NCBI GenBank assembly: GCA_049521735.1
Contig: JBEKON010000001.1
Span: 98,604 to 162,603 of the forward strand
Direction: 5' to 3'
Length of the DNA stretch: 64,000 nt
Origin: Verrucomicrobiota bacterium
GTDB lineage: Bacteria; Verrucomicrobiota; Verrucomicrobiia; Limisphaerales; UBA11358
Positions within the stretch are counted from its first letter, which is position 1, and each line of letters starts with the position of its first letter. The notes beneath the pieces were generated by a model. It made no database searches, was not told where the DNA came from, and was given only the letters and a program-made list of their open reading frames with translations. Shown piece by piece: positions 671 through 55,204 of the stretch. A program made the translations under genes and the position numbers.

Positions 671-3600
671 TTGCGCGAAAAATGCGGTGTGCAGGTGCGA
701 TTTCTCCTCGGCCCCGCCGGCAGCGGCAAGACGTTCCTTTGCCTGAAGGAAATCCGTGATGCACTGCGCGAAAATCCTGAAGGACCGCCGCTGATTTTGC
801 TGGCGCCCAAACAGACCACGTTTCAACTCGAACGCCAGTTGCTCACCGGCCATTCGCTTGACGGTTACACGCGACTCCACATTTTTTCATTCGAGCGGCT
901 GGCACGATTTGTTTTTGAAAAATCAAACATCGTGCCGCCTGAACCATTGAGTGACGAAGGCCGTGTGATGGTGTTGCGCGCGCTGTTGATGCGGCACGAA
1001 CATAAACTGAAACTTTTTCGCGGGAGCGCGCGCCGCCCCGGCTTCGCGCAGGAACTCGGCGGATTGTTCAATGAATTCCGGCAGCATCAATTGACGCCGC
1101 TCAAACTCCGCGCCCTTGCCCAACGCCCGGGCTTGCGTCCCGAACTTGGGGACAAGCTGCAAGACCTCGCGCTGCTGGACGACGCTTACGCGAAATGGCT
1201 CTCCGAACACGAATTGCAGGACGCGGATTGTTTGCTGGATACGGCGACCGAAGCGCTGCGCTCCGAACTTAAAACTCAAAACTCAAAACTTAAAATTCAA
1301 GGTTTGTGGTTGGACGGTTTTGCCGAAATGACGCCGCAGGAACTCGGTTTGCTCGCCACCATTCTGCCGTTTTGTGAACGCGCAACGCTCGCGTTCTGCC
1401 TCGACGAATCCCGCGCGCGGAAAGCCGAAAGTTCATGGCTCTCACTTTGGTCAGCCGTTGGCAAAACCTATCAACAATGCCGGTCGCGAATTGAAAATCT
1501 GCCCGATTGCACAATCAGCGTTGAAACACTTAAGCGTGTCCCGGACCAAAACCGCTTTACGGGCAGTCCCGCTTTGCAATTTTTGGAGGCAAACTGGTCG
1601 CAACCAACTCAAAACTTAAAACTTAAAATTCAAAACTCAATCCGGCTCGTTGCCTGTCCAAATCCCGAAGTCGAGGCCGTTCTGGCCGCGCGCGAAATTT
1701 TGGAATTCGTCCGCCGCGGCAATCGCTTTCGCGACTGCGCCGTGCTTGTTCGCAGTCTTGACGCCTATCACAAGCCGCTGGAGCGCGCATTTTGCCGTTA
1801 CGGCATCCCGTTTTTCCTGGACCAGCGCAAATCCGTTTCACATCACCCCCTCGGCGAACTGACCCGCAGTGTGGTCCGCACCGTTGCATTTGACTGGCGG
1901 CAGGAGGATTGGTTCGCCGCGCTGAAAGCCGGGTTTTCGCCGGTGGATGAGGCGGAGATTGACCGGTTGGAAAACGAGGCGCTGGCGCGCGGCTGGCGTG
2001 GCGCGAAATGGCGCGAACCCATTCAAATCGCCGACGATCCACAATTGGAAAAATCACTCGAACGGTTGCGCAAAAAAATCCTGCCACCGTTTGAAAATTT
2101 CGCCAAACAGCTTGTGCGGTTGAAAAATGAACCCACCGGCGGGCAATTGGCCGATGCGTTGCGCGAACTTTGGGGCGAACTCGATGTGGAGAAAACCTTG
2201 GAGCGTTGGAGCCTTGTCGAAACGGAACAATCCGCAATCCATTCGACCGTTTGGGATCAAATGAACTTGTGGCTGGAAAATCTGGCGCTTGCATTTCCAC
2301 GCGAGCCATTGCCGCTGCGCGACTGGCTGCCAATTTTGGAGGCGGGACTTTCGAACCTGACCGTTGGGGTGATTCCGCCCGTGCTCGACGAAGTGCTCGT
2401 CGGCGCGATTGACCGCGCGCGCAACCCCGATTTGAAACTGGCGCTCGTGCTCGGCGTGAATGAATCCGTTTTTCCCGCCGCGCCCGCCGCCCCGACGATT
2501 TTGACCGACGCCGACCGCGATGAATTGAATCCTGCGGTTGCGCTTGGCCCGGATTTGCGCGAGCGGCTGGCGCGCGAGCGTTATTATGGCTACATCACCT
2601 GCACCCGCGCGCGGGAAAAACTCGTTGTGACCTTTGCCCGCCTCGACGCCGATGGCAAAACACTGAACCCGTCGTCGCTCGTCGCACATCTGCGACAGAT
2701 GTTCCCTGAACTTGAAATTGAGGAATTCCACACGGACACCGATTTGGGCGAGGTGGAACATGTGAGTGAAATCGCGCCGATGCTGATGGGAGTTCAGGTA
2801 GGGCGGGCTGTCCCCAGCCCGCCGGAGCGGCGCGATGAGGACATCGCGCCCTACCAACAAAATTGGGCGAGGTTGCTGAAAATTCCAGTGCTCGCAACGC
2901 TGCTCGAAAATTTGCGCCAGTTGCGCGAACCGGATTCGGCGGAATGTTTGTCTCCCGCGCTCGCGGAAAAAATTTACGGCGAGACACTGCAAACGTCGGT
3001 CAGCCGGCTCGAGGAATTTGCCCAGTGCCCGTTTCGATTTTTCGTTCATTCCGGCTTGCGCGCCGAGGAGCGAAAAGTTTTCGAGCTGGATGCGCGCGAA
3101 CGCGGCAGTTTTCAGCACGAAGTTTTGAAAAAATTCCACGACGATTTGACGAAAGAGGGCAAACACTGGCGCGACATTGCGCCGTCGGAAGCGCGCGAAC
3201 GCGTTGGTAAAATTGCCGCCGGACTTGCGCAAGATTATCGCGACGGTTTGTTGCGCGCGGATGACCAAAGCCGGTTTGCCGCGCGCATGCTGACGGAGTC
3301 GCTGCAGGATTTTGTCGAGGTGCTCGTCGCGTGGATGCGCGGGCAGTACCAGTTTGATCCGGCGGTGGCTGAACTCGAATTTGGTTTCAACGTCGGCGGT
3401 GCGCCCGCGTGGGAAATCAATCTCGACGACCGGCACAAGCTCGCGTTGCGCGGACGGATTGACCGGGTTGATTTGTGCCGCGAAACCGGCGACAGCGCGT
3501 TATGCGTGGTGATGGATTACAAGTCCGGCGGCAAGAAGCTCGACGCGATTTTGGTCGAGCACGGCGTGCAATTGCAATTGCTCGCGTATTTGAACGCGCT

Positions 3601-4102
3601 GCGGCATTGGCCAAATCCTCAAACGCTGTTGGAAGCGGCCCGGTTGATTCCAGCGGGTGTTTTCCACGTGAATCTGCGCGGCCAATACGAAAGCGGCAGC
3701 ACGCGCGCCGAGGCGCTGGCCGACGCGGATGAATCACGGCGCGTGGCGTATCGTCATACGGGACGTTTTGATGCGAGTTTTCTGGACAAGTTTGACAACC
3801 GTCCGAATGTGCGGTGCGGCGACCAGTTTAATTATAACCGCAACAACGACGGCTCAATGCGCAAAGGCTCGACTGAAGCGCTGTCGCGCCCGGAATTTGG
3901 AGCGTTGCTTGACCGCGTCGAAATGCAATTGCGCAAGATGGGCCGCGCGATTTTTTCCGGCGCGGCGTCCGTTGACCCGTATCGCAAAGGCAGCGAGACG
4001 CCGTGCGGATTTTGCGATTACCGCGCCGTGTGCCGGATTGATCCGTGGACGCACCGTTATCGCGTGCTGCGCGCGGCGAAAGAAAATTCTCCGTCAACAT
4101 GA
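671..4102 (+). CDS. addB: AddB/RexB-type helicase-nuclease subunit (PD-(D/E)XK nuclease with Fe-S cysteines)
   Basis: 1143-aa ORF; N-terminal Walker A GPAGSGKT; C-terminal CPFRF ... CGFCDYRAVC four-Cys pattern typical of AddB. Start uncertain (TTG 671 or GTG 689/695). No addA-like gene adjacent. Confidence 0.75.
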   Translation: MREKCGVQVRFLLGPAGSGKTFLCLKEIRDALRENPEGPPLILLAPKQTTFQLERQLLTGHSLDGYTRLHIFSFERLARFVFEKSNIVPPEPLSDEGRVMVLRALLMRHEHKLKLFRGSARRPGFAQELGGLFNEFRQHQLTPLKLRALAQRPGLRPELGDKLQDLALLDDAYAKWLSEHELQDADCLLDTATEALRSELKTQNSKLKIQGLWLDGFAEMTPQELGLLATILPFCERATLAFCLDESRARKAESSWLSLWSAVGKTYQQCRSRIENLPDCTISVETLKRVPDQNRFTGSPALQFLEANWSQPTQNLKLKIQNSIRLVACPNPEVEAVLAAREILEFVRRGNRFRDCAVLVRSLDAYHKPLERAFCRYGIPFFLDQRKSVSHHPLGELTRSVVRTVAFDWRQEDWFAALKAGFSPVDEAEIDRLENEALARGWRGAKWREPIQIADDPQLEKSLERLRKKILPPFENFAKQLVRLKNEPTGGQLADALRELWGELDVEKTLERWSLVETEQSAIHSTVWDQMNLWLENLALAFPREPLPLRDWLPILEAGLSNLTVGVIPPVLDEVLVGAIDRARNPDLKLALVLGVNESVFPAAPAAPTILTDADRDELNPAVALGPDLRERLARERYYGYITCTRAREKLVVTFARLDADGKTLNPSSLVAHLRQMFPELEIEEFHTDTDLGEVEHVSEIAPMLMGVQVGRAVPSPPERRDEDIAPYQQNWARLLKIPVLATLLENLRQLREPDSAECLSPALAEKIYGETLQTSVSRLEEFAQCPFRFFVHSGLRAEERKVFELDARERGSFQHEVLKKFHDDLTKEGKHWRDIAPSEARERVGKIAAGLAQDYRDGLLRADDQSRFAARMLTESLQDFVEVLVAWMRGQYQFDPAVAELEFGFNVGGAPAWEINLDDRHKLALRGRIDRVDLCRETGDSALCVVMDYKSGGKKLDAILVEHGVQLQLLAYLNALRHWPNPQTLLEAARLIPAGVFHVNLRGQYESGSTRAEALADADESRRVAYRHTGRFDASFLDKFDNRPNVRCGDQFNYNRNNDGSMRKGSTEALSRPEFGALLDRVEMQLRKMGRAIFSGAASVDPYRKGSETPCGFCDYRAVCRIDPWTHRYRVLRAAKENSPST
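1268..1300 (+). repeat. Heptamer tandem array (AAAACTC/AAAACTT/AAAATTC x4-5), in frame inside addB
   Basis: cttaaaactcaaaactcaaaacttaaaattcaa read directly; encodes ...LKTQNSKLKIQ... Confidence 0.9.
1606..1640 (+). repeat. Second AAAACTY heptamer array, same orientation, in frame inside addB
   Basis: caactcaaaacttaaaacttaaaattcaaaactcaa; encodes ...TQNLKLKIQNS... Confidence 0.9.
2797..2855 (+). repeat. GTAGG...CCTAC double-hairpin palindromic element (type 1), in frame inside addB
   Basis: ggtagg-gcgggctg tcccc agcccgcc-ggagc-ggcgcgatg aggac atcgcgcc-ctacc; translated as VGRAVPSPPERRDEDIAPYQ. Confidence 0.9.
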
Positions 4103-4788: not shown

Positions 4789-6575
4789 TGATACTCCTGC
4801 AACGTCTTGACGCTGTAGCCGGATTTTTTGAGTGCGGCGATGCCGAGGGCGGCGGCTTTCGCGCCGCTTAGCGTCGTCATGATGGGCGTGCCGGTGTAAA
4901 TCGCTGTCGTGCGGATTTTGACTTCGTCTTCTCGCGGCACCGCGCCGCTCGGCGTGTTGATGACGAGCTGGATTTCCTTGTTCTTGAGCAAATCAATCAC
5001 ATTTGGACGGCCTTCGAGCAATTTAACGATGCGCTCGACTTTCAAGCCCGCCTTTTCCAGCACACCGGCCGTGCCGACTGTCGCCACAAACTCGAATTCC
5101 AAATCGGCAAATTGTTTCGCCACCGCCGCAACATGTTTTTTGTGCGCGTCACTCACGCTGATGAAAACTTTTCCGCTCAACGGCAGCGACGCGCCCGCCG
5201 CTATTTGCGATTTGGCGTAGGCGATGCCCAGGTCGGCATCCAGACCCATGACTTCGCCGGTCGAGCGCATTTCCGGCGAGAGCAAAATATCCTGCCCATG
5301 AAAACGGTTGAACGGGAAAACGGATTCCTTCACCGCCCAATACTTCGGTTTGATTTCCTTGGTGAAACCGAGTTCTTTCAAGGTTTTTCCGGCCATGACT
5401 CTCGCCGCGAGCTTGGCCAGCGGCACGCCAATGGCCTTGCTCACAAACGGCACGGTGCGCGACGCACGCGGGTTCACTTCGAGCACGAAAACCTTTTCGT
5501 CCTTCACGGCGTATTGGACGTTCATCAAGCCGATCACTTCCAATTCGCGCGCCATCGCGTGAGTGTAATCGCGAATTGTCTCGATGACTTTTTTGGAAAG
5601 TGTGTGCGGCGGCAAAACCATCGCTGCATCGCCGGAATGAATACCGGCGAATTCGATGTGCTCCAATATTCCTCCGATGACAATTGTGCCGTCGCCCGGT
5701 TTTTTGGAATGGCCGACGTCGGCGATGCAATCCACGTCCACTTCGGTCGCATCTTCCAAAAACCGGTCCACGAGCACCGGACGTTCGGGCGATGCCTCGA
5801 CCGCGAAACGCATGTAATGCTGCAATTCGGCGTCGGAATAGACAATTTGCATCGCGCGACCGCCGAGCACGAAACTTGGCCGGACCAAAATCGGGTAGCC
5901 AAGCTTTTGGGCGACTTCGAGCGCCTCCGTTTCGTTCGTGGCAACACCGTTGGGCGGCTGCGGAATTTTCAGTTTGTCGAGCATCGCGGCGAAGAATTTG
6001 CGGTCTTCGGCGATTTCGATGTTCTGTGGTGAAGTGCCGATGATGTTGACGCCATTTTTCTGGAGGCCGAGCGCAAGGTTCAGCGGGGTTTGCCCGCCGA
6101 ATTGCGCGATGGCGCCCCAGCATTGCTCGCGTTCGTAAATGTGCAGCACGTCTTCGAGCGTGAGCGGTTCGAAGAAAAGCTGGTCGCTTGTGTCGTAATC
6201 GGTCGAAACGGTTTCGGGATTCGAGTTGACCATGATGGTTTCGAAACCGTCCTCCTTGAGTGCGAACGCGGCGTGCACGCAGCAGTAATCAAACTCAATT
6301 CCCTGCCCGATGCGGTTCGGTCCGCCGCCGAGAATCATCACTTTTTTCTTCGGCGTCCTTTTGATTTCGTCATCGCCGCGATCATAAGTCGAATAATAAT
6401 AAGGCGTGTAAGCCTCAAACTCGGCGGCGCAGGTGTCCACGAGTCGATAGCTGGGCACAAGGCCGAGTTTTTTCCGTAGCGCGCGGACTTCGTCCTCAGT
6501 TTGGCCGGTTAAATGGGCGATTTGCCGGTCGGAAAATCCCAAACCTTTCGCTTTGCTCAAAGTGTCATGTGTCAT
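4785..6575 (-). CDS. carB: Carbamoyl-phosphate synthase large subunit, C-terminal half only (split carB)
   Basis: 596 aa. From memory it aligns with E. coli CarB from about residue 470 onward: [57 protein letters not shown], second ATP-grasp, MGS-like tail. No N-terminal half in this window. Confidence 0.85.
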
Positions 6576-6590
6576 GTGCCATGTGCCACG
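6562..6590. repeat. Left arm of long hairpin (GTGTCAT/GTGCCAT heptamers x4) enclosing the four-helix-bundle gene
   Basis: gtgtcatgtgtcatgtgccatgtgccacg. Hand pairing with 6978-7006 gives 22 Watson-Crick + 3 G-T of 29 positions. Contains the carB-C start codon and the four-helix-bundle ORF stop. Confidence 0.8.
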
Positions 6591-8426: not shown

Positions 8427-8511
8427 GCGCATATGGTGGAATTGGCAGACACGCTACTTTGAGGTGGTAGTGGGGCAACCCGTGCAGGTTCAAGTCCTGC
8501 TATGCGCACCA
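8427..8511 (+). tRNA. tRNA-Leu (anticodon GAG), CCA encoded
   Basis: Hand fold: acceptor GCGCATA/TATGCGC, anticodon stem CTACT/GGTAG with loop TTGAGGT, long variable arm, T-arm GCAGG-TTCAAGT-CCTGC. Layout parallels E. coli tRNA-Leu. Confidence 0.9.
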
Positions 8512-9618: not shown

Positions 9619-9626
9619 CAGGTGTA

Positions 9627-9655
9627 GTTTCAAGTTTCAGGTTTCAAGTTTCAAG
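9627..9655. repeat. Intergenic heptamer array (GTTTCAA/GTTTCAG x4)
   Basis: gtttcaagtttcaggtttcaagtttcaag between the ribE start and the ribD stop. Confidence 0.9.
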
Positions 9656-9693: not shown

Positions 9694-10896
9694 TTAATCA
9701 ACACGTGCCGTCAGCAACAAATCCGGTCCGAGCCGCCTCCACTCGACGTTGCGAAGCCGGAGCGCCTCCGCCAGACTTTTCGCGCCGCCACCCGCGACCG
9801 CTTTGCGTGAGTCGCGTCCGCCCAGAATTTTTGGCGCGTAAAAAAACGCGATGCGATGTGCAAAACCGCCGAGCAGAAACGATGCGTTCACTTCGCCGCC
9901 GCCTTCGACCAGCAGGCTGGTAATATTTTGTGAGCCGAGTTTTTGCAACAGCCAACGCAGGTCAATTTGTTGGTAGGGCACGGTCTCCGCACCGTGCCGC
10001 GGCGCGCTGGGGACAGCGCGCCCTACCTTGATTATGGGCGCGACAAGAACATTCACGCGCCCGGCCAAAGCCGCGACGCGACTTTTCGGCGCGGATTTGC
10101 TCACGACAATCGTCGTCAGCGCCGCAAATTTGTCAGTTACAACTTTTGCCTTCAACGGTGTTCGTGCCATCGAATCCAAAATAATCCGGCGGAGCCGCAA
10201 ATTTTTGTTCTGACTTCTGACTCCTGACTTCTGCCTTCTGAATGTCAGGCTTGGGTTGTCCGCTAGAATCGTGTTGATGCCGACGAGAATCGCGTCGTTG
10301 CCTTGACGCAATTTCATGCCGTGCGCCCGAGCCTGCTTGCCGGTAATCCATTTCGACTCGCCACTCGCCGTGGCGATTTTCCCATCGAGCGTCATTGCCG
10401 CCTTCACGGTCACGAACGGCGTGCGGTGAACAATCCAATGGTTGAATGGTTCATTAAGCCGCTCACATTCATCGGCGAGTCTGGTAGGGACGGCTCGCCG
10501 AGCCGTCCGGTCATCACGGCGCAATAACCCTACCTCTGTTACTGCAATCCCGGCACGTTTCAAAATCCTGAAAGCACGACCGGCATGTTTCGGATTTGGA
10601 TCCGTCGCGCCGACAACCACGCGTTTGATTCCCGCCGCGATGATGGCGTCCGTGCAAGGTGGCGTGCGGCTGTGTGAGCTGCACGGTTCGAGCGTCACGT
10701 AAAGCGTTGCGCCGCGCGGCGAGTGCCCGCGTTTCTGCGCATCGCGGAGCGCTTCGATTTCCGCGTGCGGCAGACCCGCACGCCGGTGCCAGCCGCGCCC
10801 GATGATTTTTCCGCCTTTCGCCAATACCGCGCCGACCATCGGATTGGGCGAAGTCATGCCGTAGCCGCGTTGCGCCAAACTCAAAGCCAGGCGCAT
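9694..10896 (-). CDS. ribD: Bifunctional riboflavin biosynthesis deaminase/reductase RibD, carrying three in-frame repeat insertions
   Basis: MRLALSLAQRGYGMTSPNPMVGAVL, HAEIEAL, LEPC..H..TPPC deaminase motifs plus reductase domain. Start moved to ATG 10896 to clear the ftsY stop. Confidence 0.9.
   Translation of the reverse strand: MRLALSLAQRGYGMTSPNPMVGAVLAKGGKIIGRGWHRRAGLPHAEIEALRDAQKRGHSPRGATLYVTLEPCSSHSRTPPCTDAIIAAGIKRVVVGATDPNPKHAGRAFRILKRAGIAVTEVGLLRRDDRTARRAVPTRLADECERLNEPFNHWIVHRTPFVTVKAAMTLDGKIATASGESKWITGKQARAHGMKLRQGNDAILVGINTILADNPSLTFRRQKSGVRSQNKNLRLRRIILDSMARTPLKAKVVTDKFAALTTIVVSKSAPKSRVAALAGRVNVLVAPIIKVGRAVPSAPRHGAETVPYQQIDLRWLLQKLGSQNITSLLVEGGGEVNASFLLGGFAHRIAFFYAPKILGGRDSRKAVAGGGAKSLAEALRLRNVEWRRLGPDLLLTARVD
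9972..10027 (-). repeat. Type-1 GTAGG...CCTAC double-hairpin element, in frame inside ribD
   Basis: Gene-strand reading ggtagg-gcgcgctg tcccc agcgcgc-...-ggcacggtg cggag accgtgcc-ctacc = VGRAVPSAPRHGAETVPYQ. Confidence 0.9.
10210..10249 (-). repeat. Heptamer array (CTGACTT/CTGACTC/CTGCCTT x5) in frame inside ribD
   Basis: ctgacttctgactcctgacttctgccttctgaatgtcagg; encodes RRQKSGVRSQNKN on the gene strand. Confidence 0.9.
10483..10534 (-). repeat. GTAGG...CCTAC palindromic element (variant) in frame inside ribD
   Basis: ggtagggacggctcgccgagccgtccggtcatcacggcgcaataaccctacc; gene strand reads VGLLRRDDRTARRAVPT. Confidence 0.85.
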
Positions 10897-10906
10897 AAAT
10901 TTCAAA

Positions 10907-11851
10907 TCATTCTTCAAACAACGCCTCCGCAAATTGTTTTGCATCGAACGGCTGCAAATCGTCCGCCTGCTCGCCGAGGCCGACGAATTTAATCGGCAGG
11001 CCGAGTTCCTTCTGAATCGCCACGACCATGCCGCCTTTGCTCGTGCCGTCGAGCTTGGTCACCACCAGCCCGGTGAGCGGCACGGCCTTGTTGAACTCGC
11101 GCGCCTGATTCAGCGCGTTCATGCCGGTCGTCGCATCGAGCACCAGCAACACTTCGTGCGGCGCGCCGGGCAGTTGCCTGCCGATGACGCGATGTAGCTT
11201 CTGCAATTCCTGCATCAGATTGTGCTTGGTGTGCAAGCGTCCGGCGGTGTCTATGAACAGGTAATCCGTCTTGCGCGCCTGCGCAGCAGCAACGGCATCG
11301 TGCGCCACAGCCGCCGCATCCGCGCCATAAGCGTCGGCAATCACTTCAACTTTCAACCGCTGACCCCAAAGCTTGATTTGCTCTATGGCTGCGGCGCGAA
11401 ACGTGTCACACGCGGCGAGCAAGGCGGTTTGCCCGCGCGATTGAACGGCGTGCGCAAGCTTGGCCGCCGTGGTGGTTTTGCCCGTGCCATTGACACCAAC
11501 AATGGAAACGACGGTCGTGCCATGCGGCGCTTTGATTAAATCGGTTTTATTCGATGCCCCCGTCTCCGCCGAAGGCTTCGACGCGGCAAGAAAACTCTTC
11601 TCCACTTCGGCACGAGCGATGGCAAAGACATCCAAGCTGGCGCCGCCCTGCGTTTCATAGTTTTTTTTCACCGCAGCGATAATTTGCGAAGTCATCGCCA
11701 TTCCCAAATCGGCGGCGATGAGCGCGGTTTCGAGTTCTTCGAGCGCGGCGGCGTCGAGCTTCGGCGAGCGCGTGATGACGCGCTTGATTTCGTGCGCCAG
11801 CCTGCCGTGGGTTTTTTGCAGACCGGCTTTGAACTTCTGAAATAGTCCCAT
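10907..11851 (-). CDS. ftsY: Signal recognition particle receptor FtsY
   Basis: [35 protein letters not shown]-GTPase motifs. Confidence 0.9.
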
Positions 11852-13236: not shown

Positions 13237-13417
13237 AAACTTAAGTTTAACAGTATGACCTGTCCAAAGTCCATCCGCCTTCGCAAGGCTACGGCGAGAT
13301 TAAAAGTCTAAAGCTCGCCTCGGCGGAGCCTTCAGCGAAGCCTGGGTCCAAAGTCAAACAATGCGACGCAACTTTGGACATTGGACATCGAACATTGGAC
13401 TTGTTAAAACTTCGCGC

Positions 13418-13801: not shown

Positions 13802-13813
13802 GCGCCGTTGCAA

Positions 13814-13845
13814 CTTAAAACTCAAAATTCATAATTCAAAATTAA
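13814..13845 (+). repeat. Intergenic AAAACTC-type heptamer array, same family as 1268 and 1606
   Basis: cttaaaactcaaaattcataattcaaaattaa. Confidence 0.85.
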
Positions 13846-20072: not shown

Positions 20073-20164
20073 AGTGTCACGTATCACGTATCATGTGTCA
20101 CGCAGCCGAATGCCAAATACCCGACGGACGACACTTGGCACATGACACACGACACCTGACACTT
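20073..20164. repeat. 'Empty' heptamer-arm hairpin of the same family as 6562/6978
   Basis: agtgtcacgtatcacgtatcatgtgtcacg - 27-nt loop - gacacttggcacatgacacacgacacctgacact. Arms share gtgtcacgtatca and tggcacatgacac strings with the carB-adjacent cassette. Confidence 0.85.
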
Positions 20165-37827: not shown

Positions 37828-37887
37828 GGTAGGGCGGGCTGTCCCCAGCCCGCCGCCAACGGCGCGATGAGGACATCGCGCCCTACC
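37828..37887 (+). repeat. Type-1 GTAGG...CCTAC double-hairpin element immediately upstream of the recG ATG
   Basis: ggtagggcgggctgtccccagcccgccgccaacggcgcgatgaggacatcgcgccctacc. Near-identical to 2797-2855 but 1 nt longer, which gives TGA in the recG frame. Confidence 0.9.
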
Positions 37888-37891
37888 TTCC

Positions 37892-39949
37892 ATGCGTCCA
37901 CAAATCCAAGACAATCCGCTGGCTGCACCCGTAACGACATTGTGGGGTGTCGGCGCGGAACGCGCGGCGCAACTCGCACGCCTCGACATTCACACCATCG
38001 AGGATTTGTTGCTGCACCGGCCGCGGCGTTATGAAGATCGCCGTCATTTTCGCAGTATTGCCGGGTTGACCCGTGACGAAGCGGCGACCACGCGCGGCAC
38101 GATTGTCACGCTCGGCCTCAGACGTTTTCGCGGCGGCAACAAATCCGTTTTTGAAATCATTCTCGATGATGGCAGCGCCCGGTTGCATTGCCGCTGGTGG
38201 AATCTGCCGTTCATGCAAAATTATTTTGCGGTTGGCGACGAGATTTTCGTTTACGGCAAGCTCAATGAAACCAAGCCGCGCATCATTGACCATCCTGAAA
38301 CCGAAGTCATCGAGGGCGGCGAGGAGAGCTTCATCCACATCAACCGCATCGCGCCGGTGTATCCGCTCACCGAAGGCCTGCCGCAACGCTGGTTGCGCGG
38401 GCTGATCTGGCGGACGTTGGAAAAATTCGAGCGGCACATCGCCGAACCGTGGCCGGGAAATGTAGGACAGGTGTCCCGCCTGTCTCCATCTTCAAGTTCT
38501 AAAAATCAGGGACAGGCTGGAAGCCTGTCCTACCCGACGCGCGCCAACGCCATTCACATGACGCATTTCCCCGAAGAGCTGGCCGATGTGGAAATCGCAC
38601 GGCGACGGCTGGCGTTGGATGAATTCATTGCGTTGCAGCGTGACATGCAGCTTCGCCGGAAAAATTTCGAGGCCAAATCGCGCGCATTACCGTGCGGTGG
38701 TGACAATCGTTTGATGAAGCCGTTTCTGGCACGGCTCGGCTTCAAGCTCACCGACGCCCAGACGAAAGTCCTCCGCGAAATCCGGGCGGACATGAGCGGG
38801 GCGCATCCGATGCGGCGGCTGCTGCAAGGCGACGTCGGTTCAGGCAAGACGGTGGTTGCCGCCTGCGCGGCGCTCATGGCTTTGGAAAGCGGGTTCAATG
38901 TTGCGCTCATGGCGCCGACGGAAATCCTTGCGGAACAACATTTCAACAATTTTTCGCGCTGGTTTGGACCGCTCGGCGTGAAGGTGAAATTGCAAACAGG
39001 TTCACACAGGAGTAAGGAACAAGAAGTAAGGCGCAAGACCCTCGCAGCAAAACCCTTACTCCTTACTCCTTGCTCCTTGACCATCGGCACTCACGCCCTC
39101 ATCGAGTCGGGATTTGTATTGGAGAAATTGGGTTTGGTCATTATTGACGAGCAGCACAAGTTTGGCGTGGCACAGCGCGAACAGATCGTGCGTAAAGGCC
39201 GCTATCCGCATTTGCTCGTGATGACGGCTACCCCGATTCCGCGCACGCTCGGCCTTACGCTTTACGGCGACCTTGATATTTCGGTAATTGACCAGATGCC
39301 CGGTGGACGCGGCAGGATAAAAACTTTTCTACGCACGACCGAAAAATTGCCTGAAGTTTGGAAATTCATCCGCGAAAAACTGGCTGCCGGACGGCAGGCA
39401 TACGTCGTTTATCCGCGCGTGGAGGATTCAGGACCAAATGGGTTGAAAGCGGTGAAAAAGGAATTTGAAAATTTGAAGAAGCTGCTCGCGCCATTCCATG
39501 TCGGGTTGATGCACGGCCGGTTGAAAGGGCGGGAGAAGGACGAAGTAATGACAGCGTTTCGCGCGAACCAAATTCAGGCGCTCGTCGCGACGACGCTGGT
39601 TGAAGTGGGTTTGGATGTGCCGAACGCAACGATCATGCTGGTTGAAAATGCGGAGCGGTTCGGTCTGGCGCAATTGCATCAATTACGCGGGCGCATCGGG
39701 CGCGGCGCGCATGAGTCGCACTGCATTTTGATTTCCGACGCGAAGAATGAGGATGCAGGGCGGCGCTTGAAAGTTTTGGAAGAGACGACGGACGGGTTTC
39801 GCATTGCCGAGGTGGATTTGAAATTGCGCGGGCCGGGCGAATTGCTCGGCCAGCGGCAAAGCGGCCTGCCGAAATTCCGCTTCGGCAATCTGGCCGGGGA
39901 TTTGGATTTGATCCGGTTTGCGCGCGAGTTGGCGGCGCAAATAATTTAG
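37892..39949 (+). CDS. recG: ATP-dependent DNA helicase RecG, carrying two in-frame repeat segments
   Basis: LLLHRPRRYEDR wedge-domain start, GDVGSGKTVVA, DEQHKFGV, MTATPIPRTL, HGRLK..EK, QLHQLRGRIGRG. Confidence 0.9.
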   Translation: MRPQIQDNPLAAPVTTLWGVGAERAAQLARLDIHTIEDLLLHRPRRYEDRRHFRSIAGLTRDEAATTRGTIVTLGLRRFRGGNKSVFEIILDDGSARLHCRWWNLPFMQNYFAVGDEIFVYGKLNETKPRIIDHPETEVIEGGEESFIHINRIAPVYPLTEGLPQRWLRGLIWRTLEKFERHIAEPWPGNVGQVSRLSPSSSSKNQGQAGSLSYPTRANAIHMTHFPEELADVEIARRRLALDEFIALQRDMQLRRKNFEAKSRALPCGGDNRLMKPFLARLGFKLTDAQTKVLREIRADMSGAHPMRRLLQGDVGSGKTVVAACAALMALESGFNVALMAPTEILAEQHFNNFSRWFGPLGVKVKLQTGSHRSKEQEVRRKTLAAKPLLLTPCSLTIGTHALIESGFVLEKLGLVIIDEQHKFGVAQREQIVRKGRYPHLLVMTATPIPRTLGLTLYGDLDISVIDQMPGGRGRIKTFLRTTEKLPEVWKFIREKLAAGRQAYVVYPRVEDSGPNGLKAVKKEFENLKKLLAPFHVGLMHGRLKGREKDEVMTAFRANQIQALVATTLVEVGLDVPNATIMLVENAERFGLAQLHQLRGRIGRGAHESHCILISDAKNEDAGRRLKVLEETTDGFRIAEVDLKLRGPGELLGQRQSGLPKFRFGNLAGDLDLIRFARELAAQII
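38462..38533 (+). repeat. Type-2 GTAGGACAGG...CCTGTCCTAC element (72 nt) in frame inside recG
   Basis: gtaggacaggtgtcccgcctgtctccatct...cagggacaggctggaagcctgtcctac = VGQVSRLSPSSSSKNQGQAGSLSY. Confidence 0.9.
39009..39076 (+). repeat. Heptamer-arm hairpin (GTAAGGA/ACAAGAA vs CCTTACT x2) in frame inside recG
   Basis: ggagtaaggaacaagaagtaaggcgcaag - loop - cccttactccttactccttgctcc; encodes RSKEQEVRRKTLAAKPLLLTPCS. Confidence 0.85.
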
Positions 39950-46458: not shown

Positions 46459-46490
46459 GCGGAACGCGGACAACTTGTCCGCGCTCCTAC
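46459..46490 (-). repeat. Single REP-like unit (GTAGGAG + hairpin) overlapping the murA stop codon
   Basis: Minus strand reads tcGTAGGAGCGCGGACAAGTTGTCCGCGttcc; the TAG is the murA stop. Confidence 0.7.
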
Positions 46491-47752
46491 GAATTTTCCT
46501 CAACGCGCCGAATCCGCGCGCCGAGTTGTTGCAGCTTGCGGTCAATATTTTCGTAGCCGCGGTCAATGTGATAAACGCGATTCACCTGCGTCGTGCCTTT
46601 GGCGGCCAAACCGGCAATCACCAGCGCTGCCGACGCGCGCAAATCACTCGCCATCACCGGCGCGCCGCTCAACGGCCGCCCGCCTTTGACAATTACGCTC
46701 GGCCCTTCGATCTCGATGTCCGCACCGAGCCGCGCCAGTTCGCTCACGTGCATGAAACGCGATTCAAAAATCCGTTCCGTGATGATGCTGATGCCCGGCG
46801 CAAGCGCGAGCAGCGACATTATCTGCGCCTGCACGTCCGTTGGAAACCCCGCATACGGCAGCGTCGTCACGTCCGCCGGCGAAAGTTTTCCGCTTCGATG
46901 AACCAATAAATTTACGCCGCGTTTTTCAACGGCAACACCCGCCTCATTCAGTTTGTCAATCACCGCGCCCATGTGATCGGCGCGCGCGCCTTTGAGCGTT
47001 ACTTCGCCGTTCGTCGCGGCGGCGGCAATCGCGTAAGTCGCCGCCTCAATCCGGTCGGGAATCACTTCATGCACCGCGCCATGCAGTTTTTTGACGCCCG
47101 TAATTGTAATCGTCGGACTGCCCGCGCCGGAAATTTTCGCGCCCATCGCGTTCAGAAACTTTGCCAGATCCACGAGTTCCGGCTCGCACGCCGCGCTTTC
47201 AATGACCGTCACGCCTTCGGCCAGCGTCGCCGCCATCATCACATTTGCCGTGCCCAGCACCGTTGAACCGGCGCGCCCGCCGAGGAACATCGGCGAACCG
47301 GTGAGTTGTTTCGCCGCCGCGCTGACGTAACCGCCTTCGATTTCGATTTTCGCGCCGAGCGCTTCAAAACCTTTCAAATGAAGATTGATGGGCCGTGCGC
47401 CGATAACACAACCGCCAGGCAGCGCCACACGCGCCTTTTTCAGCCGCCCCAACAGCGGCCCCATGATGCAAACCGAACCACGCATTTTGCGAACGAGTTC
47501 GTAGTCGCCGTAGCCGCGGATTTTCTGCGCGCGAACGGTTACCGTGCCGTTTTCAAATTTAGTGCTGGCGCCGAGCGATTCGAGAATCTGCGTCATGAAC
47601 CGCGAGTCGCTGAGGTCGGGCACACCATGGATGACGCACGGTTCGTCGGTCAGCAACGCAGCCGCCATGATGGGCAACGCGGCATTTTTGCTGCCGCTAA
47701 TCGTCACCTCGCCGTGCAATGGCACGCCGCCTTTGATCAAAAAACTTTCCAT
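46487..47752 (-). CDS. murA: UDP-N-acetylglucosamine 1-carboxyvinyltransferase
   Basis: MESFLIKGGVPLHGEVTISGSKNAALPIM...; start at ATG 47752. The Arg-rich extension in the ORF track is translation of the hairpin. Confidence 0.95.
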   Translation of the reverse strand: MESFLIKGGVPLHGEVTISGSKNAALPIMAAALLTDEPCVIHGVPDLSDSRFMTQILESLGASTKFENGTVTVRAQKIRGYGDYELVRKMRGSVCIMGPLLGRLKKARVALPGGCVIGARPINLHLKGFEALGAKIEIEGGYVSAAAKQLTGSPMFLGGRAGSTVLGTANVMMAATLAEGVTVIESAACEPELVDLAKFLNAMGAKISGAGSPTITITGVKKLHGAVHEVIPDRIEAATYAIAAAATNGEVTLKGARADHMGAVIDKLNEAGVAVEKRGVNLLVHRSGKLSPADVTTLPYAGFPTDVQAQIMSLLALAPGISIITERIFESRFMHVSELARLGADIEIEGPSVIVKGGRPLSGAPVMASDLRASAALVIAGLAAKGTTQVNRVYHIDRGYENIDRKLQQLGARIRRVEENS

Positions 47753-47765
47753 GTGAAATTGGTTT

Positions 47766-47826
47766 ATCCTTCTTGTTCTCGTCCTCGTCCTCATTTTTCG
47801 ATTACGAGGACGACGACGAGGACGAT
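47766..47826. repeat. Hairpin with period-6 arms (CTCGTC/CTCGTC vs GAGGAC/GACGAC)
   Basis: atccttcttgttctcgtcctcgtcctc - atttttcgattac - gaggacgacgacgaggacgat. Hand pairing gives a ~20-bp stem with 1 mismatch and 2 G-T. Covers the prmC 3' end and the murA leader. Confidence 0.85.
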
Positions 47827-48722
47827 TTGGCAATTAAAAATCTTTCGTGCTGACTGTAATCCTCCCTCACCGCTTCGACAATCCACTTTTCGTTTCCAAA
47901 AATTTTCCGAACTGCTTGAGCCTGGCCGTCTCCGAATTCAAGCATGATTTTCCCGTCCGATTTCAAAAATGCCGCTGCGTGCGCCGCAATCAAACGGTAA
48001 AAATCCAGGCCGTCCGTGCCACCGTCGAGCGCAACGCGCGGGTCAAAATCGCGGACTTCAGGTTGAAGTGTGGCAATTTCGGCGGATGGAATGTAAGGCG
48101 GATTACTAATGATGAGGTTGAAGCGCGCGTCGCCGGACAATGCGGCAAAACCGTCACTTTGTTGAAATTGGATTCGCTCGATGACATTGTGCCGGACGGC
48201 GTTTTGTCCGGCCAATGCGAGTGCATCCACCGAGGTGTCTGTCGCGACGATTTTTGCGTTCGGACATTTTACGGCCAGTGCGATGGCGATGCACCCGCTG
48301 CCGGTGCCGAAATCCAGAGCAGTTGGGACATCAACTTGGGAGGGACGGCGTGTCGCCGTCCCTAAATTTGGGTCGGCAGGATGCCGACCTTCCCCTGTTA
48401 AAAATTTCCACCCGAGTTCGGCGAGCAATTCGGTTTCCGGTCGTGGCGCGAGCGCGTGGGGGTTCACAGCGATCTCAAGTCCGCAGAATGAAGTTGAGCC
48501 GACAATGTGCTGAAGTGGTTCGTGTTGGCCACGGCGTTTGACCATCTCGCGCAACGCGTCCACTTCTGTCGGCGTAAGCGTGCGCTCGAAGTTTAGATAC
48601 AATTTCATGCGCGGCAGCTTGAGCAGATGTGCGAGCAGGAGTTCGGTTTGCAGGCGCGGCGATTCGACGCCTTTTTTGGCCATAAAATCCGCGCTCTTCT
48701 GAATCGCTTCAAGAACTGTCAC
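47802..48722 (-). CDS. prmC: Release-factor glutamine N5-methyltransferase PrmC/HemK, with in-frame repeat insertion and hairpin-derived poly-Ser tail
   Basis: LDFGTGSGCIAIALA, IISNPPYIP; C-terminus ...LIAKSSSSSSS. Confidence 0.85.
   Translation of the reverse strand: MTVLEAIQKSADFMAKKGVESPRLQTELLLAHLLKLPRMKLYLNFERTLTPTEVDALREMVKRRGQHEPLQHIVGSTSFCGLEIAVNPHALAPRPETELLAELGWKFLTGEGRHPADPNLGTATRRPSQVDVPTALDFGTGSGCIAIALAVKCPNAKIVATDTSVDALALAGQNAVRHNVIERIQFQQSDGFAALSGDARFNLIISNPPYIPSAEIATLQPEVRDFDPRVALDGGTDGLDFYRLIAAHAAAFLKSDGKIMLEFGDGQAQAVRKIFGNEKWIVEAVREDYSQHERFLIAKSSSSSSS
48338..48395 (-). repeat. Double-hairpin palindromic element (type 4) in frame inside prmC
   Basis: gggagggacggcgtgtcgccgtccc-taaatttg-ggtcggcaggatgccgacc-ttcccc; gene strand encodes GEGRHPADPNLGTATRRPSQ. 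Confidence 0.85.
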
Positions 48723-49433: not shown

Positions 49434-50360
49434 ATGAGCAAAACCGCATTGCTGTTTGCCGGACAAGGCACGCAGGCCGTCGGCATGGGCAAAGACCTCG
49501 CCGAAAAATTTCCGTCGGCCAAAGCCTGGTTCGACCGCGCCAACGGCGCGCTCGGCTGCGATCTGGCTTCGATCTGTTTCACCGGCCCGGAAGCCGAACT
49601 CACCAAAACCGAAAATGCACAGCCGGGAATTTTTCTCGTGAGCTGGGTCGCGTTTCTATTGCTCAAGGAACAGGCGCCGTTGCTTAAATTCGACGCCACA
49701 GCTGGTTTGTCGCTCGGCGAATTCACAGCGCTGACGGCGGCGGGCGCAATGAATTTCGAGGACGGTCTGCGGGTCGTGCGCCAGCGCGGACGATTCATGC
49801 AGGAAGCCTGCGATGCCACGCGCGGCGGCATGGCGGCGGTCATCGGCTTGGACGAAACGCTCACACGCGAGGTTTGTGCCGAAGCCGGCGTGGTGCTGGC
49901 AAACCTGAATTGTCCCGGCCAGCTCGTGATTTCCGGCGAGATGGACAAGATCGCCAAAGCCGTCGAACTCGCCAAAGCCAGGGGCGCAAAACGCGCGATT
50001 CCACTACCGGTCGCCGGCGCCTATCACTCGCCGCTCATGGCCAGTGCACAGCCAAAACTTCAAGCTGAATTGGCCAAAATGAAATTATCATCACTGGTTG
50101 TGCCGGTGATTTCGAACGTGACGGGACAACCGCATGGCGGCACAACGGAAATTTCCGCCCGGCTTGTCGAGCAGATCACGTCATCGGTGTTCTGGGAAAA
50201 ATCCATGCGATATCTGTTGGCACAAGGATTCACGCGGTTTATAGAACTCGGGCCCGGCACGGCATTGAGCGGTTTCATGAAACGAATTGATAAAAATGCG
50301 CAGATGCTCAACGTGGCGGACGTGGCAAGCCTGGAAGCGACGGCGAAAGTGCTGGTGTAG
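49434..50360 (+). CDS. fabD: Malonyl-CoA:ACP transacylase
   Basis: FAGQGTQ, GLSLGEF, full length 308 aa; the stop TAG lies in the GTAG terminus of the next element. Confidence 0.95.
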   Translation: MSKTALLFAGQGTQAVGMGKDLAEKFPSAKAWFDRANGALGCDLASICFTGPEAELTKTENAQPGIFLVSWVAFLLLKEQAPLLKFDATAGLSLGEFTALTAAGAMNFEDGLRVVRQRGRFMQEACDATRGGMAAVIGLDETLTREVCAEAGVVLANLNCPGQLVISGEMDKIAKAVELAKARGAKRAIPLPVAGAYHSPLMASAQPKLQAELAKMKLSSLVVPVISNVTGQPHGGTTEISARLVEQITSSVFWEKSMRYLLAQGFTRFIELGPGTALSGFMKRIDKNAQMLNVADVASLEATAKVLV

Positions 50361-50461
50361 CACCCGCGTCTCGCGGGTGACGTTGGGCGTCCCGCCCGGC
50401 GCAAGTTTCCGCAAAGGTTCAGGCGGGACGCCTGAACCGACCCGCCGGAGGCGGGTGCTAC
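50357..50461 (+). repeat. 105-nt GTAGCACCCGC...GCGGGTGCTAC multi-hairpin palindromic element
   Basis: gtagcacccgcgtctcgcgggtg ... ggcgtcccgcc ... ggcgggacgcc ... cccgccggaggcgggtgctac. Confidence 0.85.
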
Positions 50462-52927: not shown

Positions 52928-53000
52928 ATAGGACAGGCTTCCAGCTTGTCTCCATCTCAAAGCGGGAAAAAGTCATGGACGGGCAAGATGCCTGTCCTAC
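52928..53000 (+). repeat. Type-2 (A/G)TAGGACAGG...CCTGTCCTAC element between convergent fabF and pyrF
   Basis: ataggacaggcttccagcttgtctccatct...ggacgggcaagatgcctgtcctac; its right terminus supplies the pyrF stop codon. Confidence 0.9.
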
Positions 53001-53908: not shown

Positions 53909-55204
53909 ATGAAAGTCATCCGCCACACCGACGCGAATTTTTCCCAGAAACTTCGCGAACTGACTGCGCCGTCGAGCCTGTTCGATCCTGTCATCGAACA
54001 GCGCGTCCGCGCCATCCTTGATGCGGTGCAAATTCGCGGCGACGATGCGGTATTGGAATTCACGGAAAAATTCGATGGCGCAAAACTCACCGCCGACCAG
54101 ATCGCCGTGACACAGGCTGAACTAATGGCCGCGTCACTCAAAGCCGACGAGTCGCTGCGCACCGCCGTCGCCGGGGCGGGAAAAAACATCACGAACTTCG
54201 CCAGGAAATCGCTGCGCAAAAACTGGCAGACGAAAAATTCGCACGGCGCGAAAGTCGGCGAGAAATTCGATCCGTTCCAGCGCGTCGGCGTTTACATTCC
54301 CGGCGGCAAGGCGCCGCTCGTTTCGACTGCGCTGATGACCATTACGCTGGCGAAGGTTGCGGGCTGTCCGGAAATTGTTGTTTGCACGCCGTGCGGCAGG
54401 GATGGCTCCATCAATTCCGTGTTGTTGTTCGCCGCTCGTGCGGCAGGCGCGACGGAGATTTACCGCGTAGGCGGGGCACAGGCGATTGCGGCGATGGCTT
54501 ACGGCACAAACACGATTCGCCGTGTGCAGAAAATTTTCGGCCCCGGCAATGCCTATGTCGTCACTGCCAAGCGCCTGCTCGTCGGGTATGTCGCGATTGA
54601 TTTGCTGCCCGGCCCAAGCGAACTGCTCGTGCTGGCGGACGAAACGGCGAATCCGAAATTCATCGCTGCCGACTTGTTGCCGCAGGCCGAGCACGGCTCC
54701 GGACACGAGCGCGTCTGGCTCATAACGACTTCGGATAAAATTTTGAAAGCCGTTGAAAAGGAGATTGCCAGACAATTACCGAAGCTGGAGCGGCGGGAAT
54801 TCATCCAGCGCGTGCTCGACGCCAACGGCTGGCTGATTCAGGTGAAAACGCTCGATGATGGCGTGGCGCTGGCGAACCGGCTCGCGCCGGAGCATTGCGA
54901 AGTGATGACGCGCAATCCGCGCAAGGTTTCCAGGGGTATTTTGACCGCCGGCGCGATTTTCCTTGGGCCATGGTCGCCGACGGTGCTGGGCGATTACGTG
55001 GCCGGGCCGAGCCACACGCTGCCGACCGGCGGCGCTGGCGCGTCGTTTGCCGGCCTGACGGTGGATCAGTTCCAGCGCCGCACCAGCGTGGTGGAATACA
55101 CCCGCGCCTCGCTCAAGAAAGCCCTGCCCACCGTGAAGAAATTCGCGGAACTGGAAGGTCTGGACGCGCATGGACGTTCTGCCGAAATTCGTTCCTCAAA
55201 ATGA
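53909..55204 (+). CDS. hisD: Histidinol dehydrogenase
   Basis: YIPGGKAPLVST, GPGNAYV, AEHGSG..., HTLPTGG. Confidence 0.95.
   Translation: MKVIRHTDANFSQKLRELTAPSSLFDPVIEQRVRAILDAVQIRGDDAVLEFTEKFDGAKLTADQIAVTQAELMAASLKADESLRTAVAGAGKNITNFARKSLRKNWQTKNSHGAKVGEKFDPFQRVGVYIPGGKAPLVSTALMTITLAKVAGCPEIVVCTPCGRDGSINSVLLFAARAAGATEIYRVGGAQAIAAMAYGTNTIRRVQKIFGPGNAYVVTAKRLLVGYVAIDLLPGPSELLVLADETANPKFIAADLLPQAEHGSGHERVWLITTSDKILKAVEKEIARQLPKLERREFIQRVLDANGWLIQVKTLDDGVALANRLAPEHCEVMTRNPRKVSRGILTAGAIFLGPWSPTVLGDYVAGPSHTLPTGGAGASFAGLTVDQFQRRTSVVEYTRASLKKALPTVKKFAELEGLDAHGRSAEIRSSK

Follow-up and report, generated by a model that had tools for sequence, protein, structure and literature searches.

A 64 kb stretch of a verrucomicrobial metagenome-assembled genome (MAG), referred to here as the window, contains at positions 2797-2855 a double hairpin that lies in frame within addB, the gene for an AddB-type helicase/nuclease subunit. 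The element is very probably an inverted doublet of GTAG-tagged repetitive extragenic palindromic (REP) units, belonging to a family of the Planctomycetes-Verrucomicrobia-Chlamydiae (PVC) superphylum that is linked to REP-associated tyrosine transposases (RAYTs), and read through as a tolerated, translated loop in the AddB linker. The doublet is 57-59 bp long and adds about 20 amino acids. Both the in-frame addB doublet and sister copies elsewhere in the window are confirmed. The aspects most worth following are that repeat families alternate at fixed sites in orthologues and that the element is better conserved than its flanks.

The doublet in addB and its sister copies

The type-1 doublets, the units of the addB copy and the host genes are as follows.

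2797-2855, no strand assigned: type-1 REP doublet, double hairpin resembling a REPIN (REP doublet forming hairpins), in frame in addB, encoding VGRAVPSPPERRDEDIAPY(Q)
2797-2824, plus strand: left REP unit, GGTAG-GGCGGGCTG-TCCC-CAGCCCGCC-G, family D9
2828-2855, minus strand: right REP unit, inverted, GGTAG-GGCGCGATG-TCCT-CATCGCGCC-G, family D6
9972-10027, no strand assigned: sister type-1 doublet in ribD, in frame, with the minus strand reading VGRAVPSAPRHGAETVPY
37828-37887, no strand assigned: sister type-1 doublet, intergenic, with a metallophosphoesterase gene on one side and recG on the other, ending 4 nt short of the recG ATG
671-4102, plus strand: addB, AddB-type helicase/nuclease subunit, with Pfam and PDB matches
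9694-10944, minus strand: ribD, bifunctional deaminase/reductase, with Pfam dCMP_cyt_deam_1 and RibD_C and PDB 2B3Z (E 2.2e-73)
10483-10534, minus strand: a second GTAG-family doublet in ribD, GGTAGGG...CCCTACC, in frame in the interdomain linker (VGLLRRDDRTARRAVPT)

Read directly from the letters of the window, the element at 2797-2855 is GGTAGGGCGGGCTGTCCCCAGCCCGCC-GGAG-CGGCGCGATGAGGACATCGCGCCCTACC, and the original prediction, which had described a GTAGG...CCTAC double hairpin at this place, was correct in both sequence and coordinates. The predicted hairpins are also there, but their stems are slightly longer than had been written, being 9 bp with 4-nt loops in the addB copy (GGCGGGCTG-TCCC-CAGCCCGCC and GGCGCGATG-AGGA-CATCGCGCC). 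Each copy is composed of two inverted GTAG-tagged REP units of a single 28-nt type, GGTAG-GGC-R-NNN-T-S / TCCN / C-A-NNN-Y-GCC-G. As is expected of REPs, the GTAG tag lies outside each unit's own hairpin (GTAG-GGCGGGCTG-TCCC-CAGCCCGCC and GTAG-GGCGCGATG-TCCT-CATCGCGCC).

The copy number of the element is well defined. The pattern GGTAGGGC-N30-60-GCCCTACC occurs exactly three times in the window (2797-2855, 9972-10027 and 37828-37887) and not at all in 100 dinucleotide-preserving shuffles of it (3 observed vs 0 expected), which bears out the sister copies that had been placed at 9972 and 37828. More generally, perfect GTAG-tagged hairpins number 13 in the window against 1.5 expected from mononucleotide shuffles. 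Folded as single-stranded DNA, the three copies reach -24.9 to -27.3 kcal/mol (z -5.5 to -6.6), energies matched by none of 200 shuffles. The predicted shape consists of two 8-9 bp hairpins, mostly enclosed by an outer GGTAGG/CCTACC stem, with two adjacent hairpins as the alternative. Thus the tag, the inverted units and the fold statistics all agree with the REP/REPIN-like doublet carrying a 5' GTAG tag that was first proposed.

The stems of the ribD copy differ from those in addB yet stay complementary (CACGGT/ACCGTG and GCGCGCTG/CAGCGCGC), so that the compensatory changes claimed for this copy are real. The intergenic copy at 37828-37887 repeats the units of the addB copy exactly, with GCCAA as its spacer instead of GGAG. 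Only 4 nt separate the end of this doublet from the recG ATG (37828-37892), leaving no space for a Shine-Dalgarno sequence between hairpin and start.

The addB open reading frame (ORF) at 671-4102 comprises 1143 codons and remains open through the element, where it reads ...MGVQVGRAVPSPPERRDEDIAPYQQNW..., within the longer translated stretch ...GVQVGRAVPSPPERRDEDIAPYQQNW.... The NCBI call for the same gene (P0001, MGA3162657.1) is 100% identical and starts at the GTG at 689. Both Pfam domains of AddB are full-length (ADDB_N, 1-290 of 290; PDDEXK_1, 2-247 of 247), and the best structural match is the PDB AddB chain 3U44_B (E 5.9e-119). The element is situated upstream of the nuclease domain, in the linker that joins this part of AddB to the helicase-like part. 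The alignment with 3U44_B, which is Bacillus subtilis AddB, has no gap at this site because the linker there is similar in length and aligns poorly, and variation at the site is therefore visible only with close orthologues.

The ribD ORF is likewise open through its type-1 element (...KVGRAVPSAPRHGAETVPYQQIDL...). The in-frame reading predicted for addB and ribD consequently holds for both genes, which translate through the element with their Pfam domains intact. Relative to solved RibD structures, the protein has two extra segments, residues 139-153 and about 22 residues near residue 300. The first corresponds to the doublet at 10483-10534, in which the left half has decayed while the intact half reads GTAG-GGACGGCTC-GCC-GAGCCGTCC; at the type-1 insert, query residues 293-322 stand against chain residues 269-278. 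An AlphaFold2 model of RibD built from 54 close orthologues has a mean predicted local distance difference test (pLDDT) score of 56.8, with half the protein below 50. Its confidence is low at residues 140-149 and 307-322, and the model as a whole is too poor to place the inserts as surface loops.

On each strand the tag closes a single one of the three phases, namely that in which the TAG of GTAG is read as a codon. Because the reading frame is kept and no stop codon lies inside the element, the 19-20 residue loop VGRAVPSPPERRDEDIAPY is most likely translated and tolerated. Insertions that broke the frame, or that fell in the phase reading the TAG, would have been lost, and the survivors would lie in frame and in loops. 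The peptide itself may be a neutral passenger, retained only where the protein tolerates it. Tryptic peptides predicted from the inserts are AVPSPPER and DEDIAPYQQNWAR for AddB and AVPSAPR for RibD. Hosts of in-frame elements in the window are addB, ribD (twice), recG and hisC. REPs typically lie outside genes, a habit that names the family without strictly defining it, as members inside genes are on record. That habit is not seen here, as 5 of the 9 GTAG elements in the window, the addB copy included, lie inside genes.

The source of the window is a MAG, which might raise the idea of an assembly or binning artefact, or of an addB pseudogene. Such an explanation is barely credible: the identical insert is found in independent NCBI, JGI and ENA assemblies, and the ORF is intact with full-length Pfam domains. 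Every member of the species-level AddB cluster that covers the site (NCBI MGA3162657.1 and the JGI and ENA assemblies) possesses the insert. The addB element is thus fixed in the species and is no assembly artefact.

Family distribution and association with RAYT genes

A family scan with the degenerate 28-nt unit, using one genome per species, found the unit in at least 119 stretches, almost all of them from PVC-superphylum MAGs. The matches listed include Verrucomicrobiota (Pedosphaera, Limisphaerales, Prosthecobacter and Opitutae), Kiritimatiellia and Victivallales. Complete doublets number at least 55 in these matches and the window together, with spacers of about 0-60 nt; inverted pairing with a short spacer is found in all three window copies and in 52 doublets of related loci among the matches listed. 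Tag (GTAG), foot (GGC) and loop (TCCY) are invariant across units. Of 50 distinct units, 34 have Watson-Crick pairing at all three stem pairs that the search pattern left free, where 0.8 would be expected; one of these pairs shows all four Watson-Crick types, and sub-families differ by complementary changes. A fixed tag and loop together with co-varying stems are the signature of a REP family.

Individual units are also shared across wide distances. The exact 26 nt of the left unit occur in other genomes (L093, L096, L100 and L109), as does the exact right unit (L029, L051, L062, L083 and L093). Both recur in unrelated contexts, even in Kiritimatiellia, so that exact 26-nt units are common to different PVC classes. 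In the related loci among the matches listed, the longest ORFs span 90% of the DNA but contain 69 of 161 units; the units are therefore depleted in genes, yet common there. In-frame hosts validated by Pfam in these loci are HypF, a class-III aminotransferase, IleRS, a U32 peptidase, LuxE, a PurL-like protein and UvrD, with the units positioned within or between Pfam domains. Both open phases, V-G-R... and G-R-A..., are used.

In Kiritimatiellia (L083, L062, L072, L064 and L108) and Prosthecobacter (L117, L116, L002 and L035), the unit was also observed within longer shared flanks (...CACGCCCGTGTCCCGTTGC/GGTAGGG and ...CGCCCAGCGCA/GGTAGGG), the REP there being part of a composite repeat of about 160 bp.

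These distributions bear on the idea that selection acts on the protein, the segment being an ordinary peptide of the lineage and its palindrome incidental. The doublet-derived peptide is indeed alike in several AddB orthologues (VGRAVPSPPERRD[ED]DIAPYQ). However, the same DNA is intergenic at 37828-37887, stands in the opposite gene orientation in ribD, and is found in unrelated genes and in other phases in many genomes. Moreover, the conservation is at the nucleotide level, pairing partners included, and the units flank RAYT genes. Because of the intergenic and multi-phase copies, protein-level selection is effectively refuted and must be regarded as highly improbable.

The connection with RAYTs comes from related genomes. 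A tblastn search with E. coli RAYT and IS608 TnpA queries served as a lead only; it pointed to a Prosthecobacter locus (L117), which was then confirmed with Pfam. The gene at L117 (3141-3701, minus strand, 187 aa) scores 29 bits for Y1_Tnp against a cutoff of 23 and is flanked by four doublets of the window's type-1 family. NCBI and JGI give its homologues the names REP-associated tyrosine transposase or RayT, and neither the HUH motif nor the catalytic Tyr varies in the RAYT alignment. A metagenome scan for relatives of this RAYT gave 80 loci, 53 of which have perfect GTAG hairpins no more than 500 bp away. Up to 300 bp from the 80 RAYT genes, GTAG hairpins occur at 2.62 per kb, compared with 0.19 per kb beyond 800 bp, a 14-fold difference.

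Cognate units flank the RAYT loci in L117, L125, L126, L156 and L160. More specifically, GGTAGGGCGCGATGTCCC(C/G)ATCGCGCC is present on both sides of the RAYT in L156 and L160 and equals the right unit of the window with changes in the loop only, and the RAYT-flanking units of L146 and L149 are identical to the intact half of the ribD doublet at 10483-10534. The RAYT genes of L156 (3001-3435) and L160 (687-1103) are located between pyrE-like and dnaK genes on two metagenomic contigs. This synteny suggests a vertically inherited, domesticated, single-copy RAYT.

Judged from gene content and flanking units in related genomes, the type-1 family has the REP-RAYT association that defines such repeats, and the RAYT link of the original prediction gains support there from Y1_Tnp/RayT genes flanked by the type-1 unit. 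The cognate enzyme of the family is probably this RAYT, an HUH/Y1 tyrosine transposase encoded by a single-copy gene with the same units at its flanks. By extension from those genomes, a RAYT presumably present in this genome may have moved the element or may still maintain it.

Turnover at the AddB and RibD linkers

The evolutionary history of the addB site was followed in 120 AddB orthologues of 64-92% identity, with a neighbour-joining tree built from conserved columns. At the same linker point these proteins carry the type-1 doublet, an EVTSLK...LLTSSPT-type insert, RRPPARRD..., PLPAGRGEG..., SAPSSG... or a short form, IQN-x-E-x-K-x-QNW, and the states are interleaved and polyphyletic on the tree. 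In its DNA the short form consists of a heptamer, ATGCAGA or AAAATTC, repeated in 4 copies; where it has this array, doublet alleles have GTC CAG / doublet / CAA CAA AAT TGG. Comparison with the L205, L120 and L122 alleles revealed no target-site duplication at the addB element (...TTCAG/GTAGGG...CCCTAC/CAACAA...). The residues on either side of the site change together with its state, an indication that alleles were exchanged by homologous recombination.

Both RibD points behave alike in 120 orthologues, showing many alternative inserts and, rarely, forms without any insert (P0250, P0308 and P0345 at the first point; P0339 and P0355 at the second). The family of the 10483-10534 doublet is carried at the first point by most orthologues. 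The comparison with orthologues that had been proposed as a check, run here for AddB and RibD, thus reveals insert points that vary from one orthologue to the next. Of the claimed insertion into addB, the extra in-frame element stands; a clean insertion into an otherwise constant gene does not, as the linker hosts alternative repeats and the 'empty' alleles contain heptamers. Because these alleles are not truly empty, the boundaries of the insertion cannot be fixed.

As side observations, other positions in AddB carry lineage-specific, repeat-like peptides, DSERWGERPREPKATSSGGSPGVSPHQ near residue 55 and WPPEVWAGLNLPAFFSLSSPKEERAGERRP... near residue 990, in orthologues P0003, P0004, P0005, P0015, P0024, P0035, P0052, P0076, P0080 and P0099. 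Repeat colonisation of addB is therefore not confined to one linker.

Four results weigh against the reading of the element as a RAYT-linked REP doublet tolerated as a translated loop. First, the tblastn search with the E. coli RAYT and IS608 TnpA queries found no RAYT in the 64 kb window. Second, 'empty' AddB orthologues have a heptamer repeat of about 18-21 nt at the place of the doublet and offer no clean empty site, and the change therefore looks like replacement or recombinational allele exchange, not simple insertion. Third, the GGAG spacer junction is seen only in addB copies, which fits a single ancestral event spread by descent or recombination and not repeated transposition. Fourth, the window element is identical to the L123 copy at 57 of 57 nt, while the flanks match at 100/135 and 101/141 positions (72-74%). 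The chance of 57 straight matches at that flank identity is about 1e-8, and a perfect element beside flanks diverged by 26-28% needs gene conversion or selection on DNA or RNA, not a neutral passenger.

Our reading is of one old event in the AddB linker, spread by descent and probably by homologous allele exchange. On this reading the units are homogenised in some lineages by gene conversion, RAYT activity or selection on structure, and decay in others.

Alternatively, the doublet may be kept as a nucleic-acid element, either as DNA bound by RAYT, gyrase or nucleoid proteins or as an mRNA hairpin at which ribosomes pause or by which the transcript is protected, with the peptide as a by-product. 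This is unlikely as the whole explanation, and it overlaps with the tolerated doublet instead of excluding it. The full identity to L123 despite diverged flanks, the exact 26-nt units in different PVC classes and the stem pairing kept by covariation are all in its favor. REPs are also proposed as RNA or DNA elements in Di Nocera, De Gregorio and Rocco 2013 (BMC Genomics 14:522; PMC3733652). On the other hand, L121, a closer relative, has 5 changes in 57 nt, in the GTAG tag, one stem and the CCTAC end, which indicates that the constraint is not universal. Many orthologues lack the element or have an unrelated repeat at the site, and gene conversion among genomic copies would explain the identity too. 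Nor does any Rfam family match the doublet, a scan of the window at the gathering threshold giving a single match, the tRNA gene at 8427-8508.

Heptamer arrays were considered as a general insertion target and rejected: none of 159 unit flanks has strong 7-nt periodicity, and their mean equals the background. The same 159 flanks have no conserved target motif beyond a weak A at position -1 (66/159).

The recurrence of inserts at the same points raises the question of whether linker positions are actively targeted landing pads, at which RAYT-dependent or other machinery swaps cassettes at existing repeats and so programs hypervariability in housekeeping proteins. At least six states at one AddB position, scattered over the tree, and the like behavior of both ribD positions are what such targeting would produce. 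Heptamer arrays lie exactly at the site in 'empty' alleles, and in L025 a heptamer-like tract abuts the doublet. Nevertheless this seems rather improbable. The unit flanks are not enriched for period 7, their weak A being the only signal, and the co-variation of flanking residues with state is what allele exchange by homologous recombination would leave. Survivorship, in which only permissive loops keep insertions, accounts for the recurrence without targeting.

In a bolder form of this idea, the AddB linker (one site), the RibD linkers (two) and probably those of RecG and HisC would be dedicated exchange sites. There RAYT-REP families and heptamer arrays would be swapped by a directed mechanism acting on single-stranded DNA hairpins, with cognate RAYTs or gene conversion homogenising the inserted DNA. 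This is quite doubtful; if true, such sites would amount to a programmed, fast-evolving peptide cassette in essential enzymes.

Relation to known repeats and other repeats in the window

The REPINs and RAYTs of Pseudomonas and Enterobacteria, reportedly treated by Bertels and Rainey in 2011 and by Nunvar et al. in 2010, offer one comparison. The REPINs of these bacteria lie outside genes with few exceptions, and as a rule their two REPs pair into one long hairpin. The doublets described here resemble them in having two inverted REPs as a mobile-looking unit and a single-copy Y1/HUH RAYT that is flanked by cognate REPs and apparently vertical. In contrast, the present units have different stems, each folds on itself, and the intragenic share in the window is 5 of 9. 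Bacterial miniature inverted-repeat transposable elements (MITEs), such as Correia/NEMIS and ERIC, derive their terminal inverted repeats from DDE insertion sequences and make target-site duplications. Like the doublets, they are small palindromic repeats that are not autonomous and through which translation can continue in frame; unlike them, the addB element has no target duplication and its partner enzyme is a Y1 transposase.

The closest precedent is verrucomicrobial. PMC3733652 defines a GTAG super-family that includes the PVC superphylum and describes Opitutus terrae as 'highly enriched' in GTAG REPs, with the most intragenic REPs of all. According to the same paper, intragenic dimers encode 20-30 aa in frame of the form V-G...P-Y (e.g. 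VGPALAAGREQRARLPAAGERPPY), some genes are hit twice, repair genes (uvrA, recBCD, ligase) are hit in excess, and GTAG repeats are linked with RAYT 'REPtrons'. The O. terrae dimers and the present doublets come from the same phylum. In both, the GTAG stands clear of the stem, stems measure 6-9 bp and vary in a complementary manner, and the units are paired in inverted orientation across a spacer that is short or of variable length. They differ in that the units there are GTAG-17 to -20 and here GGTAGGGCGSGNTG-TCCY; furthermore, the host here is an uncultured relative of MAGs labelled Limisphaerales/Pedosphaera. The element is thus the same kind of thing as that reported in 2013, in a different sequence family and lineage.

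In-frame elements of this sort had initially been called unusual and known mainly from Rickettsia palindromic elements (RPEs). This was overstated, since PMC3733652 already catalogues intragenic GTAG REPs that are verrucomicrobial and lie in repair genes, recBCD-type included. RPEs are palindromes in frame in conserved, functional protein genes (Ogata et al. 2000, as cited in PMC3733652); RPE-4 and RPE-6 are CGTC-tagged, and Table 1 of PMC3733652 gives no transposase association for the CGTC superfamily. In-frame insertion into conserved protein genes is common to both systems, occurring here in addB, ribD (twice), recG and hisC. The sequences (CGTC vs GTAG) and the lineages (Rickettsiales vs Verrucomicrobiota) are unrelated, however, and RPE-1 is longer. 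The element works like an RPE but is no member of the RPEs.

The available portions of PMC3733652 make no mention of repeat families alternating at one orthologous site or of element identity exceeding flank identity, and turnover at fixed orthologous sites is possibly the sole aspect that is new. RAYT-associated REP doublets are not limited to proteobacterial intergenic DNA: this uncultured verrucomicrobial lineage routinely has them in frame in core enzymes (AddB, RibD, RecG and HisC; HypF, IleRS and UvrD in relatives). In annotation, 20-residue stretches of the 'VGRAVPS...APY' type should count as repeat-derived and not as features of a domain; alignments and gene calling by homology are distorted by them. 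The linker sites also offer a natural experiment that can show where loops accept an insertion and how repeats turn over. A conserved element between diverged flanks also provides a route to testing gene conversion or RAYT homogenisation against selection on nucleic-acid structure.

Other GTAG families in the window are the following.

38462-38533: second GTAG doublet family (GTAGGACAGGCTTCCAGCCTGTC ... GACAGGCAAGATGCCTGTCCTAC), recG copy, in frame, extra relative to solved RecG
55513-55582: second GTAG doublet family, hisC-like copy (ORF 54895-56352), in frame, extra relative to solved HisC
52928-53000: second GTAG doublet family, third copy, between fabF-like and pyrF genes
50357-50461: third GTAG family (GTAGCACCCGCG...CGGGTGCTAC), 105 nt, -42 kcal/mol

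The second family is thus in frame in both recG and the gene for the HisC-like aminotransferase (GTAGGACAGG...) and is extra relative to PDB homologues in both. The TAG of the third-family copy (50358-50360) is the stop codon of the fabD-like ORF at 49434-50360, and a GTAG hairpin at 46465-46490 on the minus strand provides the stop codon of the ORF at 46487-47833 as well.

Tandem arrays of 7 nt, with 3.4-5 copies each, are numerous in the window.

Arrays: 1266-1300, 1606-1640, 10208-10241, 39054-39078, 6562-6588
Further arrays: 9626-9655, 13374-13400, 13812-13843, 20077-20162, 63016-63110

We take these arrays to resemble the heptamer short tandemly repeated repetitive (STRR) sequences of cyanobacteria. 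Several are in frame, in addB (KTQNSKLKIQ), in ribD (a 7-aa gap relative to PDB RibD) and in recG, and orthologues vary at these places.

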